From the IMG/VR virus record IMGVR_UViG_3300012933_000154, positions 1 to 41,845 of that record: a DNA stretch of 41,845 nt; one strand, written 5' to 3'. Positions 9,849-36,400 of the stretch are shown one piece after another. Both the position numbers and the translations under genes were made by a program. Origin of the DNA: a virus (taxonomy: Duplodnaviria > Caudoviricetes). Each line of letters opens with the position of its first letter. Position 1 is the first letter of the stretch. A model generated the notes under the pieces. The model saw only the letters and a program-made list of their open reading frames with translations, did no database searches and was not told the DNA's origin.

Positions 9849-9864
9849 GTAAAAGGAGAAAACC

Positions 9865-11776: not shown

Positions 11777-11805
11777 ATTTATACAGTCTATAAAAGGAGA
11801 AATAT

Positions 11806-18546: not shown

Positions 18547-18575
18547 TTGACAACCAACAACTAGATAACTAAACT
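18547..18575 (+). promoter_or_regulatory. SigA-type promoter
   Basis: TTGACA-17 nt-TAAACT; GAAAGGAG RBS follows. Confidence 0.8.
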
Positions 18576-18593
18576 GAATTTGAAAGGAGAAAT

Positions 18594-19535: not shown

Positions 19536-19565
19536 CTAAAACACACACACATGAAAGGAGAAGTC

Positions 19566-20303
19566 ATGTCAGCAACGACACCACTTCCAACGCTTAGTTT
19601 CGCTAAGTTGATTCACAAGGCAGAAGCCTTGAACGCACCAAAGACCATCCTCATCTACGGAGACGCAGGACGCGGAAAGACTTGGCTTGCAGCATCTGCT
19701 GCAGAAGTAGCCGACATGTCACCAGTTCTGCTGATCGATGTCGAAGGTGGCGCATCAGCAGTCGCTCGTGACTGGAAGGATGTTGATGTAATCAACGTCT
19801 CAACCCACGAACAGTTCGACGCTGTAGTTTCAGACCTGCTAAACATCCAGCACAAATACAAGACCGTCATTATTGACACCCTTGGCGTGCAGATGGACCG
19901 CGCAGAGAAGGCTTTTGGAGAAAAGCCAGAGAACAAGGGCAACAAGTTTGGTAAGTGGGGCGACCTGAAGATTTGGGCAAACGACACCGTTCGCGCAATG
20001 CACTCAGCACCATTCACCTCAATCATTCTGACCCACGCAGTAGATGAAAAGGATGAGAACACCGGCGCAGTGAAGACTGTGCCAAACATCCCGGGCGGTT
20101 CGAAGAAGGACCTGCCGGGCATCCCAGACATCATCGGATACATGACGCTTCAGAAGACCGAAGAAGGCGCAAAGCGCGTCCTAATCGTTGACGCAAATGA
20201 CCGACTAGTAACAAAGAACCGCTTCAACTTGCCAGCAGTAATCGTTGAGCCAAGCATGAAGAAAATCACAACCCTTATCAAGGAATCAGGAGAAAAGAAA
20301 TAA
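19566..20303 (+). CDS. AAA_24 / Sak4-like ATPase (annealase)
   Basis: 'YGDAGRGKT', 'IDVEGG', 'IIDT', 'DIIGY', 'KNRF'; AAAGGAG RBS. Confidence 0.85.
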   Translation: MSATTPLPTLSFAKLIHKAEALNAPKTILIYGDAGRGKTWLAASAAEVADMSPVLLIDVEGGASAVARDWKDVDVINVSTHEQFDAVVSDLLNIQHKYKTVIIDTLGVQMDRAEKAFGEKPENKGNKFGKWGDLKIWANDTVRAMHSAPFTSIILTHAVDEKDENTGAVKTVPNIPGGSKKDLPGIPDIIGYMTLQKTEEGAKRVLIVDANDRLVTKNRFNLPAVIVEPSMKKITTLIKESGEKK

Positions 20304-20770
20304 TGTCTAATATCACTATTAGCGGAATCACCACACAGTCACTAGAGACCAAGAGTGACTACTCACCAATCCCAGCCGGCAACTACAACGCCACCATCTT
20401 CGACGTAAAGTCAGAAGAAGTCCGTTCAGGCGCAAACGCTGGTAAGCCACGCTTCAACATCCAGTTCAAGATCGTTGGCCCACTACACGAGAACCGTCGC
20501 GTATTCAGCCTCGTGCCACTATACGTTGCAAACGACTTCTGGAAGACCCAAGCGTTCTTCTCAGCACTCGGCTACGACATGAAGGCTGGAGACTTCGCAG
20601 TGCCAGAGGTGTCAGAACTTCTAGGCAAGGCAATCTCAGTTCGCGTCAAGATTGGCGCAGACCAGAACGGTGAGCCACGCAACGAAGTTGCAGGGTTCGA
20701 CGCTTCAAAGGCTGGCGACAGCCTAGCAGACCTCCTAAAGGGTCAGGGAGCAACCGAGAACGTCTGGTAA
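20303..20770 (+). CDS. Phage SSB-like protein (DUF669-like)
   Basis: 'Y.PIPAG.Y...I', 'L.GK...V.V', 'RNEV'; follows the Sak4-like gene. Confidence 0.7.
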   Translation: MSNITISGITTQSLETKSDYSPIPAGNYNATIFDVKSEEVRSGANAGKPRFNIQFKIVGPLHENRRVFSLVPLYVANDFWKTQAFFSALGYDMKAGDFAVPEVSELLGKAISVRVKIGADQNGEPRNEVAGFDASKAGDSLADLLKGQGATENVW

Positions 20771-20786
20771 ACAGACCTGAATGGGC

Positions 20787-20816
20787 AGACCTGAGCCACG
20801 TCTTAAAACTGGCTCA
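20787..20816 (+). ncRNA. H-type RNA pseudoknot
   Basis: S1 AGAC/GTCT, S2 TGAGCCA/TGGCTCA, loops of 1, 1 and 6 nt. Confidence 0.6.
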
Positions 20817-20819
20817 CTA

Positions 20820-20890
20820 CTCTCAACTGGTGTCACGCAAACTTCTTCTCCTTTCAATTGCGTGTTCAAGTTCGATTCTTGAATGAGGGA
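20820..20890 (+). ncRNA. tRNA-shaped element with anti-SD loop in the primase leader
   Basis: Closing stem CTCTCA/TGAGGG; stem CACGCAA/TTGCGTG with 17-nt pyrimidine-rich loop; T arm TTCAAG-TTCGATT-CTTGAA. Confidence 0.65.
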
Positions 20891-20917
20891 CGAAATGGAG
20901 AAGAAGAAAGGGCAACC

Positions 20918-23119
20918 ATGTTAACAAAAGATTTTTTCGAAGCGATTTACGGAGACGGTGCAGGCTACGCCACACTAGTCACCCGAGACGCTAGAAACAA
21001 CCCAACAGTTCAGAAGTTTTTCAGTTACCCTGATGAAATCGACGAAATGGTCGAATACTCAGAGCGATTCAAAGACGAAGACGTTTACGTCTCACCAATC
21101 CTGTTCTACGAAGAGCGACGAATCCGCGAGAACGCCAAATCTGTCGCAGTAGTCTACGCAGACGCAGACGCATGCCCACCAGAGAAGTTCCTAATCGAAC
21201 CGTCAATCTCTGTGCAGACATCACCAAACCGCTGGCACTGCTACTGGATTCTGCCACAGTCACACGACCCAGCCCAGATTGCCCTGCTATCAAAGAAGGT
21301 AGCCTACGCGCACAAAGACGACGGCTGTGACCTATCAGGCTGGAACCCAACCAAGTTGCTTCGTGTTCCAAACACAAGCAACCGCAAATACGATGTCTCG
21401 CACCCTGTAATCGCAACCACCACCGGCGCAATCTACACCGTTGCCGACATGGAAGCAGTCTACGGAGACATCAAGGTTGACTCGATCCTCGACCTAAGCC
21501 TTCAGCCAATGCCAGAACAGCCACTAAATGTTATGGACATCCTAGGCAAAGTCCCAAGCAACCCAGAAGTAATGTCTCTCTACCTAGATGAGCCACTACC
21601 GGGGCAGGATTTGTCACGCCGACTTTGGAAACTAGAACTTGAACTATTCCGTGTCGGGCTAACCGCCGAAGAAGTCTTCGCTGTAGTTCGCCACGCAAAG
21701 TGCAACAAATACCACCGCACAGACCGCCCAAAGCGCATGGACGCAGACGGCGACCTGTGGCGTGAAGTTCAGCGCGCCTCGCAGGTCTACCTAGTAGACG
21801 GCAATGCCGCTTTCGAGAAGATGGAACTCATCCCGAAAGAAGAAGAGAAGAAGGTAGACTTCCTACTCGCTCACGAGCGCGAGATTGTCAAAGACCACCC
21901 AACCTTCATTGACCGTTACAACGACTGGGCTTCAAAGAAGACAGATGCCGCATACCAGTATCAGGTAGCGTCAGCGTTCACCGTGCTCTCATCGGCGTTC
22001 TCAGATAGTGGACACGCAATCCCTAAATACGGCAAGATGGGCCTAAACCTTTGGTTCATGATTCTCGGTGAAACAACCCGTAGCCGTAAGTCGACCTCGC
22101 GTCAACTAATGCTACGAATGGTTCGTGAATACGAAAAGTTCGCCGGCTACCAGATCGATGTCGGTTCAGATGTGACCGCAGAAGGTCTAGTCAAGTTGCT
22201 GTCAAACCGCGACAAGCAGACCTCGCTATTCCACCGCGACGAAGTTCAGGGTATGTTCAAAGACTTCATCAACAAAACATACATGGCAACCGCTGCTGAA
22301 CGCTTCACCGAACTCTATGACGGACACGTCCCAGTGGTCGTTCGCTCAACCGGCGGAGGCACGCCGGGCAAGGGTTCACAGTCTGAGCGCGCGGAAACCA
22401 ACTTCATCATGTATCTAATGGGAATCACCTCAAAGACCGCAGATGTTCTAACAACCGAATATTTCCGTTCAGGATTCCTAGCCCGATTCATTTATGTAAT
22501 CGCAGACGCACCAGACCGCACCTACGAAAGCGAAGCAATCCAGCAAGCCGACGAAGTAGAGGTATCTGTTCGCGACGAAGAGATGCACGCAATCGTGCGC
22601 TCACTCTACGACTCATACATGTATTGGCAGAAGAAGGGCGCACCATTCCCACGCCCAGTTCGCATGACAGACGAGGCCCTAGAGCGCTTCAACGCCTTCA
22701 AATGGGAGATGGGTAACTTTACCGCAGGGCACGAACACGAAGACTCTATCGAGCCTTCACGCCAGCGTCTAGCCCTATCTGTTTGGAAGTGCGCCGTGCT
22801 CCTAGCAATGTATGACAAGTCAGACATGGTAGAACTACGCCACCTGTTAATCGCAATCCACTACTCAGAAGACTGGTTCAAGAACCTAGTCCGAATGGCT
22901 GGAGCAATCTCAGCGTCAGAATGGCAACGAGAAGTAGACGAACTAGAAGCACTCGTCACCTCAAAGGGTGGACGCATGCGCTACGAAGAGGCATACCGTC
23001 GCTTTGGCGCGAAGCGTAAGCGCGAGTTCGACGAAATGGTTGACGCGCTAAAGTCTCAAGGCAGAATGGCAATCGTAAACGAAAGCAACAAGATGTTCTT
23101 GGAGGTGGCTCGTGGATAA
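20918..23119 (+). CDS. AEP primase(-polymerase) fused to a DUF3987-like P-loop helicase
   Basis: N-terminal 'YADAD', 'QTSP.RWH.YW', 'LLRVP'; C-terminal 'LGETTRSRKST', 'T.EGL', 'RDE', 'SGFLARF'; ATG 20918 after GAAAGG. Confidence 0.82.
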   Translation: MLTKDFFEAIYGDGAGYATLVTRDARNNPTVQKFFSYPDEIDEMVEYSERFKDEDVYVSPILFYEERRIRENAKSVAVVYADADACPPEKFLIEPSISVQTSPNRWHCYWILPQSHDPAQIALLSKKVAYAHKDDGCDLSGWNPTKLLRVPNTSNRKYDVSHPVIATTTGAIYTVADMEAVYGDIKVDSILDLSLQPMPEQPLNVMDILGKVPSNPEVMSLYLDEPLPGQDLSRRLWKLELELFRVGLTAEEVFAVVRHAKCNKYHRTDRPKRMDADGDLWREVQRASQVYLVDGNAAFEKMELIPKEEEKKVDFLLAHEREIVKDHPTFIDRYNDWASKKTDAAYQYQVASAFTVLSSAFSDSGHAIPKYGKMGLNLWFMILGETTRSRKSTSRQLMLRMVREYEKFAGYQIDVGSDVTAEGLVKLLSNRDKQTSLFHRDEVQGMFKDFINKTYMATAAERFTELYDGHVPVVVRSTGGGTPGKGSQSERAETNFIMYLMGITSKTADVLTTEYFRSGFLARFIYVIADAPDRTYESEAIQQADEVEVSVRDEEMHAIVRSLYDSYMYWQKKGAPFPRPVRMTDEALERFNAFKWEMGNFTAGHEHEDSIEPSRQRLALSVWKCAVLLAMYDKSDMVELRHLLIAIHYSEDWFKNLVRMAGAISASEWQREVDELEALVTSKGGRMRYEEAYRRFGAKRKREFDEMVDALKSQGRMAIVNESNKMFLEVARG

Positions 23120-25479: not shown

Positions 25480-25691
25480 TAGACGTATTCTTCGATCCTG
25501 ACACCGGTAAGTATTACGAAGCGACACTAATCTGCTCGTGCGACACCCCAGTCTATGGCTTGCCTGAACGGCACTTCTTCTGCCAGCACTGCGACCTACC
25601 GTGCCCAGAAGAGCCATGCGTCACTTGTTGGGGTTATAATAGAAACATCGACGAGCGACTAGCGTGGCTTGAAGATGAGGGCTTGGATTAG
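25428..25691 (+). CDS. Cys-rich putative Zn-binding protein (start uncertain)
   Basis: CSC...CQHCD.PC....C..C; nearest in-frame start is TTG 25428. Confidence 0.55.
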   Translation: MGSHEERAFPRQTDSPIVDVFFDPDTGKYYEATLICSCDTPVYGLPERHFFCQHCDLPCPEEPCVTCWGYNRNIDERLAWLEDEGLD

Positions 25692-25761
25692 GTTTCGTCT
25701 ACACTTAAAATCCGTACACGGCCGGTGTAGCACCACGGTTCGATTCCGTGCAGGTCCACTA
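25679..25761 (+). ncRNA. Miniature tmRNA-like RNA (tRNA-like domain only, no tag ORF)
   Basis: Acceptor stem GGGCTTG/CAGGTCC with G3.U70 and discriminator A; stemless 13-nt D-loop containing GGTTTCG; stem CTACAC/GTGTAG; 3-nt linker; T arm CACGG-TTCGATT-CCGTG. Confidence 0.75.
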
Positions 25762-33483: not shown

Positions 33484-36400
33484 TAGTTAATACCTCTCTG
33501 GGCCAGCAGAACATTGCCAGCGTTAGCCGATGAAGCAATCTTACCAGTCTCAGTAAAGAGGTTTACTGGGCGATCAATCGCAGCGCGAAGAAGTGCGCGG
33601 TCGTCAGGTGAAAGATAGACAACCTGTGAACCGCCGTTTGAACCGGCAGCGCTTCCGGCACTAACTGGCATGCGACCGTACTTCATCTGGTTTAGTGAAT
33701 TCATGAAGTCAAGGCCGTAAGTCTTGACAGAGGCTGCGTTCATAACGAACTCGCCATTTGACAATCGCGCAGGGATGCTGTCTGAGCGTGAACCGCCAGG
33801 ACCAGAAACGTAACCACCGTTAGCGTAGGCGAGTTTCACATCAAAAGGCTTGTACTTTAGTCCGTTGGTTGCTTCCCACTTGCTAATGTACTTCATAGCG
33901 TTATCGAGCACCATTGAGTGAGCGATTCGAGTAAGCGACTGGTCCCACCAGTTCTTCTTGTTCCAAGAAGTCATTTCTGCGCGAAGGTCGTTGTAAACCT
34001 TTAGGTAGGTAGCCAAGCCGGTAGGTGTCTTAGGTCCGGCTGGCGTAGTAGTAGTCTTAGTAGTAGAAGCAGCAGGAGCAGCAGGGAGTTTTAGCCCAGA
34101 AGCCGGGTTAGACGTGGCTCCGGTTGCAGTCTTACTACTGGTAGTCGTAGGAGGCGTGACAGTGCCTGCGCTATTAGCAACGCCATCCTTGTCGTAAACA
34201 ATTTTGACGTTAAGCATGTGCTCTTTTGCAAGGTATTCCTGCACAGCGTTGAACTCATCTGTCTTGCTTGCGTCGAACTCGATAGTCACATCGCGAGGAG
34301 TAGTGTGTACAGCCGTGGCGTACTTGTCGAACTGGTCAGCGTACAAAGCCAATTCGGTAGAGTTGAAACCAACCTGCTTACCCTGATCGATAAACTTCGC
34401 CTTTAGGTCAGTCACCTGCTTTTCAAGGTCAGTACCTTTAACGCCAGTGGCCATCAAAGCCTGAATGTAAGACTGATACTTGCCAAGCATGTCAACCATG
34501 CCAGCGCGGTTAGCCGCACCAACCTCAGTGCTGTCGGTTAGCGACTTGTTAGTTGACTCCTGAGCCTTAGTCAAGTCAGAGTTTGCGTCAGCGAGTTCGC
34601 TAGTCTTCTTAGCAATCTCGGCACGGAGTGCAGTTGCTCGCTTAGTGTCGCCGTAGCGAACAGCAACAGAAAGTTTGTAGTCAAGGATTCCCTTGTCAGC
34701 ACTTAGGCTGGCAACTGTGTCCTTTGCCTTCTGCACGGACTTCGCGGCCTCATCGGCTGCTGTCTTCATGCTTCTCCAGCCAGCAGAAATCTCATCAAGG
34801 CCAGTCTGCTTAGAGAACTTAATGTCATCGATGCGCTTAAAGATGCCGATCATCTGTGAAGCGTAATCTACAACAGTCTTTACAGCGTCTTTAGTAGACT
34901 TAGCGCCCTTAGTCAAATCCTTAACCGAAACAAGAGGGGCCTTGAACGCGTCAGCAACTTTCTTTCCAGTCTGGTCAGCGCCCAAACCAAGCAAGATGGT
35001 TTCGTTGTAAGAGCCTTGCATTTCAACCTGCAAGCCCTCAAGAAGCATGTTGGCATTAGTCCAAGCATCGTTGAACAGACCAGGGAAAATCCACTTCTGG
35101 CCCTCGATCTTCTTCTTCAAGCCCTCAAAGTAAGTTTCGCCCTTACCGCTAAAGACTGCAGCCAAAGCCTTGTCAGGGTTATAGCCGGTCTTTGCGAGAA
35201 GGTCCATAGCGTCTTGGTTCTTAGCAACCTTCTTGACAACCTCGCTACGAGCGATTGCGTTCTTCATCCAAGCAACGGTGTTAGAGCCGATCGCAATAGT
35301 CTGCTCGCCAATTCTCGTAGTGGAGTTAGCGAAATAAGTTGGTTCTGCACCAACAATGCTCAGAACGTTGTTGTGCGCAGCAATAGCGTCATTAACTTCT
35401 TTAGAGTTGTCAGCGGTAGCCTCGGTGTGGATAAGAATAATACCCTGTGCTTTTGCATACTCTTCAGCAGTCTGCCCGGCAGCCCTAGCGTTTTCATTTA
35501 GCGCAGCAGTGTCAGAGGTTAGAGCATCCTGTAAGCCGTCAAAGCCGCCAAGCATACTCTCAGCCTGAGAGATCATTGCGCCCATAGGGTCGACAGCCTT
35601 GTAGATAGCATCGCCAATCGCAACGATAGCCGCCGCAGCAGCAGCCAGAGCAGCAATCCAGCCGGCAGCCTTCATCGCCTGGCCCAAAGCAAGCATCGCC
35701 ATTTTAGTAGCACTTAAAGCGCCTGTCGCGCCGGCTGCGGTGGTAGCAGTAGCCACCATAGCACCATCAACGCGAGCCAAGCCTGCAACTGCAGTATTAG
35801 CAGACTTGCTGCCCATACTCTCCATAGCAGTACCGAAAGCAAAAATAGCAGCCTGACCCAGAGCCATAACACCAGCCAGCGTGCCAACGATAGCGACCAG
35901 AGAAGAAATGCCGATAGCAATAGCACCAAGCCAGTAGCCGACAGGACTGCGAGACATATCAGTCATGGCCTTTAGCACAGTGTTGATACCATCAAGAAGA
36001 AGTTTGAAAGCGTCACCAACGACACTCTCACCCAAGCCTGCAACAAAGTTGTCCCAGTTGTTCTTCAAAAGTTCTAGTTTTGCTGCAACAGTATCCTGAA
36101 TTTTGCCATAAGACTCGGTTAGGTAAGAGCCCTCAGCAAACGCCTCCTTGGCGTTGCGGATAGAGTCGGCGTAAACGTTGTAGTTGTCACCAAGTTTTTG
36201 CACAGTCTGGATGTCACGAACATTCTTCAGGCCGATGCCACGAAGCACAGTGTCAAGGTTCTGACCCTTGTTGCTCATAGACTGGAGGCCCTTTACGAAG
36301 CCATCAAAAGCAACCTGACCATTCTTAGTCCAAGAACTAGAGAACTCTTCCGCAGACATGTTAGCGATAGACGCATAGGTCTCAAGAGAAGCGCCACCCT

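Follow-up and report, generated by a model that had tools for sequence, protein, structure and literature searches.

Counterparts among described RNAs

Two phage antisense RNAs, C4 of P1 and P7 and CI of P4 (RF01695), are RNase P substrates and have no equivalent of a T loop, as stated in PMC5499578. Both are phage-encoded, 70-80 nt long and located within the transcript that they control. Their consensus consists of a long closing stem and two hairpins, and they serve the immunity of temperate elements; the targets of P1 C4, a2/b2, lie just 3′ of it, where the following gene has its leader. Other small RNAs are directed at Shine-Dalgarno (SD) sequences, namely: the anti-SD sRNAs of the cuckoo/ar14 type, which are host-encoded plain hairpins, and the 6C RNA of Actinobacteria (RF01066), likewise made of host-encoded plain hairpins. 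The C-rich loops of 6C repress the helicase gene dnaB at its ribosome-binding site (RBS), according to PMC6486639. Finally, the MALAT1 triple helix lies 5′ of mascRNA, and it is RNase P cleavage that gives the upstream RNA its 3′ end (PMC8457004).

The locus described here is part of a 41,845-base phage record, the whole of which is referred to as the window. Early replication genes are found on the + strand and virion genes on the − strand. The early set comprises a WhiB-like gene and the genes for a Cas4-like exonuclease (18594), a Sak4-like protein (19566), an SSB-like protein and a primase. The interval between the last two genes contains a pseudoknot and a tRNA-like RNA, with the following features:

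20303..20770, + strand: SSB-like gene
20787..20816, + strand: H-type pseudoknot (stem 1, 20787-90/20800-03; stem 2, 20792-98/20810-16)
20820..20890, + strand: tRNA-like RNA, consisting of acceptor-like stem, GG-containing linker, loop stem, T arm and discriminator A (20890)
20820-25/20884-89, + strand: closing (acceptor-like) stem, 6 bp
20826-33, + strand: linker ACTGGTGT
20834-40/20858-64, + strand: 7-bp stem carrying the loop
20841..20857, + strand: 17-nt pyrimidine loop complementary to early-gene ribosome-binding sites
20865-70/20878-83, + strand: T stem, 6 bp
20871-77, + strand: T loop TTCGATT
20918..23119, + strand: DNA primase(-helicase) gene, start ATG 20918

Like C4 and CI, the tRNA-like RNA has a loop complementary to sites in its own transcript, as judged by predicted pairing and covariation. 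Its geometry fits RNase P, which is predicted to make its 5′ end. It differs from C4 and CI in having an invariant GTTCRA T arm and in its predicted targets, which are the SDs of replication genes. The comparison with C4 and CI drawn in the original prediction holds for the mode of action and not for family membership: the RF01695 covariance model has no match in the window or in 16 loci, while it scores the P1 C4 and P4 CI controls at 68.8 and 74.9 bits, and the tRNA-like RNA's own model in turn misses P1 C4 and P4 CI. With 6C it shares an unpaired C-rich loop and, by prediction, a G-rich RBS as partner. 6C has no tRNA scaffold, whereas here a single loop appears to be tuned to the SD word of each phage, and the 6C family (hairpins with C runs) gives no Rfam hit at E≤10.

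The likeness to tRNA (RF00005) extends to the T arm, T loop, GG, 12-position top half and A discriminator. In contrast to tRNA, there is no D stem, loops of 10-32 nt replace the 7-nt anticodon loop, and the helix is split 6+6 rather than 7+5. The tRNA-like domain of tmRNA also has no D stem, and it shares the T arm, GG, 12-position top half and A discriminator with the RNA described here. The G3-U70 pair of tmRNA is absent in all 64 rows of our alignment, in which the third acceptor pair is C-G (60 rows) or U-A (4 rows).

Fold and conservation of the tRNA-like RNA

The stems, linker, loop and T arm are all found exactly where the original prediction had placed them. The fold (20820-20889) is that of a tRNA top half in which the 17-nt pyrimidine loop replaces the anticodon arm, and the three-helix form is both the minimum free energy (MFE) and the centroid structure of the 70-nt piece. 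Since the folding energy of this piece alone is unremarkable (z −1.48; 15 of 200 shuffles equally good), the tRNA-like RNA is accepted as real because of its conservation across loci. Neither ARAGORN nor Rfam calls it in the window. The expression data consist of four RNA-labelled runs and one unlabelled run, assembled into contigs without ends at a depth of ~2-13, and a processed species was not seen among them; one 151-nt contig of a close relative covers 20806-20956 and tells neither strand nor processing.

Viral loci were collected by SSB search (6 loci) and primase search (66 loci). A covariance model, which had been proposed as a check, confirms that the structure is conserved. It matches 63 of the 66 primase-linked loci, many of which are among the 45 hand-picked copies used for training, and the three misses are contig ends less than 100 nt from the primase. 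RNAalifold on an unfitted MAFFT alignment (n=45) returns the same three helices, and 16 of 17 pairs are changed on both sides. In the model-fitted alignment, which holds 64 distinct rows including ~6 weak non-members, 94% of the cells are paired, compared to 64% when shuffled and 34-45% when slid. A primase-independent pattern scan yielded 120 loci, and 12 of the 100 that were searched contain strong model matches.

RNase P reads the T loop, the GG, a top half of 11-12 nt and an A discriminator, and all of these features are kept in the tRNA-like RNA. The linker GG and the T-arm GTTCRA are invariant across copies, one alignment gap aside, with the T arm reading TTCAA in two added loci. The T loop and the acceptor end are 12 nt apart in 44/52 loci and 11 nt apart in 8/52; the discriminator is A in 51/52, and the first base is G in 38/52.

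Rfam has no match for the tRNA-like RNA in the window or in 16 loci, under conditions that detect P1 C4 and P4 CI. The loop-bearing element is also absent, by our own covariance model, from the cultured relatives Amigo, Nonagon and Jojan60, where scores reach at most 28 bits and fall on tRNAs and a tmRNA-like unit. Targeted literature searches, which covered sources outside subscription journals, returned no description of it. Its motif words and contig ids are absent from the searched supplements of the virus csRNA catalogue PMC10690425, and the term tRNA-like is absent from the accessible part of PMC5737381. The family may nevertheless sit, without a function, among the ~10,000 unannotated models of PMC10690425. 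Judged by sequence comparison, the tRNA-like RNA represents a genuine family of phage RNAs that is uncatalogued and whose targets have comparative support.

The phages that carry the RNA form an uncultured clade. The host is probably actinobacterial, as suggested by the WhiB-like gene and by the nearest cultured primases, which are ~39% identical and belong mostly to Arthrobacter and Curtobacterium phages. No host genome or prophage was found among GTDB genomes, and no integrase among the 52 window proteins scanned.

Two further observations concern related elements. In one genome, a second copy with a different loop is found elsewhere (G013:C1:32268-32346, − strand), ~30 nt 5′ of an early gene, and the leader of this gene shows partial complementarity to that loop. 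Another locus (L106:607-677 and 1586-1674) carries a pair of tRNA-top-half elements that belong to a different type; a similar short motif precedes each of them, and neither has an Rfam match.

The loop and its predicted targets

Loop length varies from 10 to 32 nt among the 40 distinct loops, which are 89% pyrimidine, and 36 of them contain CTCCT. In the window, loop complements are found at the following sites, listed together with a promoter match:

9852..9860, + strand: 9-nt match at the RBS of a small early gene (GTG 9865)
11793..11801, + strand: 9-nt match at the RBS of the second SSB gene (ATG 11806)
18547..18575, + strand: sigma70-type promoter match TTGACA-17-TAAACT 5′ of the Cas4-like gene (consensus match only)
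18580..18591, + strand: predicted target at the RBS of the Cas4-like exonuclease (ATG 18594), 12 nt
19552..19563, + strand: 12-nt match at the Sak4-like RBS (ATG 19566), with weak or no covariation in relatives
20892..20906, + strand: predicted primase-leader target, 14 bp with one bulge, −19.6 kcal/mol

The complementarity is as originally claimed, both for the 14 bp with one bulge in the primase leader and for the 12 nt at the Cas4-like and Sak4-like RBS. The placement of the primase site beside the RBS needs qualification: the pairing is there, and the site ends 11 nt before ATG 20918, just 5′ of the likely SD (AAAGGG). The five longest perfect loop complements of the window include the Cas4 and Sak4 12-mers and a primase 10-mer; the remaining two are 10-mers at 35995 and 41106, antisense inside virion-side genes.

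For the comparative tests, own and foreign loops were scored against gene leaders with row and column effects removed. The set comprised 19 representative genomes (of 25 with the loop; near-duplicates dropped) and 26 genes, giving 52 tests with a Bonferroni threshold of ~0.001; start codons were chosen by a script that favours purine-rich SDs. With common descent controlled only in part, own loops fit better than foreign ones at the primase (p=0.0001 by longest match, 0.0008 by energy) and Cas4 (p=0.0004 and 0.0010), while Sak4 gives p=0.03 and 0.18 and SSB shows no covariation (p=0.53 and 0.46). Four further genes reach nominal p<0.05, two of them on the virion strand.

For a repeat of the test, 52 loci were reduced by clustering to 29, 22 or 14 representatives, and the primase and Cas4 both give p≤0.0005. 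Within-clade permutation leaves the primase at 0.001-0.04 and Cas4 at 0.004-0.03, compared to 0.93-0.95 for Sak4 and 0.57-0.86 for SSB. Sak4, with p of 0.018-0.25 overall on the clustered loci, was therefore rejected as a co-evolved target. The original prediction's option of a trans-acting repressor of replication genes is thus supported for the Cas4-like and primase leaders, which covary with the loop, and weakly or not at all for Sak4.

Genome-wide, own loops have 45 RBS sites of at least 9 nt, compared to 22.4 for swapped loops (p=0.0014, 20 genomes), and 43 of the 45 are on the early strand. They include 7 primase, 6 Cas4, 5 Sak4 and 3 second-SSB sites, the rest being mostly at small unnamed early genes. 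It should be noted that the sites are unevenly spread, with 26 of the 45 in three genomes and none in 6 of the 20, and that many loop-target duplexes are only 6-9 nt long.

The same counts bear on whether the loop might instead be a decoy or host-directed sponge that mimics the 16S rRNA tail and thereby absorbs a host nuclease or silences strong host messages. The toxin MazF-mt3 cleaves the anti-SD and U^CCUU, as reported in PMC6101614. TCCTT is present in 28 of the 40 loops, and a tRNA scaffold should be stable. Nevertheless, the loops do not converge on the tail, which we take to end in ...CACCUCCUUUC: CACCTCC occurs in 0/40, ACCTCC in 2/40 and TCTCC in 21/40. Furthermore, the generic tail gives 12 RBS sites in the 20 genomes where own loops give 45, and we regard a decoy role as improbable.

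The position of the match relative to the start codon differs between the two main genes. For 39 of 44 Cas4 leaders, no more than 10 nt separate the end of the match from the start, so that the match covers the SD itself. In the primase the best match ends at least 11 nt before the start in 18 of 46 leaders, 5′ of a second SD-like word. The primase arrangement would suit an activator or ribosome-delivery adaptor, whose pairing beside the SD would open the leader or recruit ribosomes to early messages. We rate this as the least probable of the readings, since the Cas4 matches cover the SD, and sRNAs that cover an SD are known to repress.

The SD words of other genes were also recorded. GGAG is present in 0 of 11-12 leaders for the capsid, decoration, major tail, chaperone and one minor tail gene, and in 10/10 scaffold leaders and 8/10 leaders of another tail gene. 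The capsid, decoration and major tail leaders have AAGGA or GAGGA in all 11-12 genomes, and early replication genes have mostly GGAG.

A translational switch acting on the adjacent primase had been the other option put forward. According to this explanation, the uncut loop would block the primase leader, and the tRNA fold together with processing would free it. The primase start is at most 45 nt from the tRNA-like RNA in 23/50 loci, 60 nt away in one and 74-744 nt away in 26/50, with tRNA genes in between in several of the distant loci. For 20 of the 23 adjacent loci, folding without constraint gives a structure that is 1.5-18.7 kcal/mol more stable than the tRNA fold, in an energy model that ignores elbow contacts. 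For the uncut RNA of the window, the energies are −34.7 kcal/mol unconstrained and −17.8 kcal/mol for the tRNA fold, and the MFE structure with the leader included is a loop-leader hairpin. Energy covariation in the adjacent loci (p≤0.01) likewise agrees with a switch.

However, the loop-primase match persists where the primase is more than 70 nt away (p≤0.005, clustered representatives), as exemplified by the 11-nt matches at 149 nt in L048 and 244 nt in L028, and a cis switch therefore cannot be what the RNA does in general. Covariation is equally strong for the Cas4 leader, which lies 2.3 kb upstream. Because this leader and the distant primases covary too, trans action is the common denominator. 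We consider the cis switch unlikely as the main function; a cis fold, as modelled, is a possible extra where the primase adjoins the tRNA-like RNA. Given the preference of the uncut RNA for a non-tRNA fold, release would depend on folding during transcription or on stabilisation by tertiary contacts; the whole tRNA fold is transcribed before the primase target is.

The original prediction had also allowed for an N-terminally extended primase read through the region from TTG 20858. This candidate was rejected: only 8 of the 23 adjacent loci have an open frame that reaches the T arm, and the peptides are unrelated.

The upstream pseudoknot, the tRNA slot and a model for release

The pseudoknot, which formed no part of the original prediction, ends 3 nt 5′ of the tRNA-like RNA, and its stems covary. 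It is present in 43 of 48 distinct loci, compared to 53 of 1040 shuffles, and the SSB stop lies 36-57 nt 5′ of the tRNA-like RNA in 47/52 loci. It is also a stand-alone phage motif just after many different genes (L249-L370), a possible 3′-end element, with ~770 IMG/VR stretches as estimated from one pattern, and nearly all of these copies have no tRNA-like RNA behind them. No Rfam match was obtained in the 20 loci tested. STAXI (RF01728) consists of tandem pseudoknot repeats, which the pseudoknot here does not match by the description in PMC2864571; it occurs as a single copy, and the STAXI rows look unlike it.

In Arthrobacter phage Amigo, the same pseudoknot follows the SSB stop and lies 3 nt before an annotated tRNA. 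The tRNA-like RNA thus occupies a tRNA slot, given the true tRNA behind the Amigo pseudoknot at equal spacing. True tRNAs are also found 5-15 nt 3′ of the tRNA-like RNA in several loci, and we infer that it derives from a tRNA gene.

This position would also be expected of a degenerate tRNA that serves as a processing signal only, directing RNase P to split ssb from the primase while its loop stays passive. Three loci carry a loopless minimal tRNA-like unit in the same slot: in L053 (3575-3631), L054 (3728-3784) and L055 (3706-3762), the pseudoknot is followed by a 57-nt unit that has no anti-SD loop. The same three loci have a loop-bearing copy 80-100 nt beyond, and so retain the loop although a separate unit supplies the cut site. 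A passive loop would also not hold CTCCT in 36/40 cases while the flanking stems vary freely, nor would it track its own leaders of two genes. It is thus improbable that processing is the sole function.

Taking the comparative data as a whole, we think it fairly probable that the tRNA-like RNA is a trans antisense repressor of early genes that would be released by RNase P. It would be transcribed within the early sak4-ssb transcript, which host RNase P would cut at 20820, and the 3′ end would then be trimmed. The pseudoknot would cap the new 3′ end of the sak4-ssb message after cleavage, while the freed RNA, presumably stable, would build up. Its loop would pair in trans over the SD regions of the Cas4-like exonuclease, the primase and small early genes, and this pairing would repress rather than activate translation. 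The net effect would be a delayed negative feedback in which the SSB message is kept and synthesis of the nuclease, the primase and small early proteins declines as the RNA accumulates.

The pseudoknot may protect the upstream 3′ end in parallel to the MALAT1 triple helix. In both systems, a small tRNA-like RNA is immediately preceded by a structured element. The likeness is an analogy: here it is a bacterial phage, an H-type pseudoknot instead of an ENE triplex, a protein-coding upstream RNA and an antisense loop. A broader scenario is possible, and we advance it tentatively. A phage tRNA gene may have become a regulator, its anticodon arm turning into an anti-SD reader that co-evolves with the private SD word of the early genes; host tRNA processing would start an early-to-late timer, and the pseudoknot and mimic together would form a bacterial counterpart of MALAT1/mascRNA.

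If released and active as proposed, the RNA would add to phage regulatory RNAs an uncatalogued kind that is spread across a clade and built on a real tRNA elbow, and whose targets are named by natural loop-target covariation. It would offer a testable route by which a phage shuts down its own early translation through host enzymes and with no repressor protein, and would suggest a regulatory function for some of the tRNA-like units within phage tRNA arrays. It may also provide a scaffold, small and probably stable, on which antisense RNAs could be designed for use in actinobacteria.

Other structured elements were also seen. In L296 (807-1010), a sub-threshold match to the GIR1 ribozyme (57.5 bits; cut-off 100) occurs soon after the pseudoknot. 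The window itself contains a second tRNA-top-half unit (25679-25758) 5′ of tRNA-Asn, with a 7-bp acceptor that includes a G3-U pair, a 13-nt linker and a short helix; it resembles the tRNA-like domain of tmRNA without the message part and is called by neither ARAGORN nor Rfam. Domains of the tmRNA tRNA-like kind without the mRNA part, 83 nt long, are found in the ssb-primase interval of Stenotrophomonas virus Jojan60 (L375:4874-4956) and of L158 (79-161), with Rfam tmRNA scores of 61.8 and 44.4 bits, respectively. Our guess is that these two domains might be decoys for SmpB or for alanine charging. Units similar to them are seen in L006, L033 and L035.
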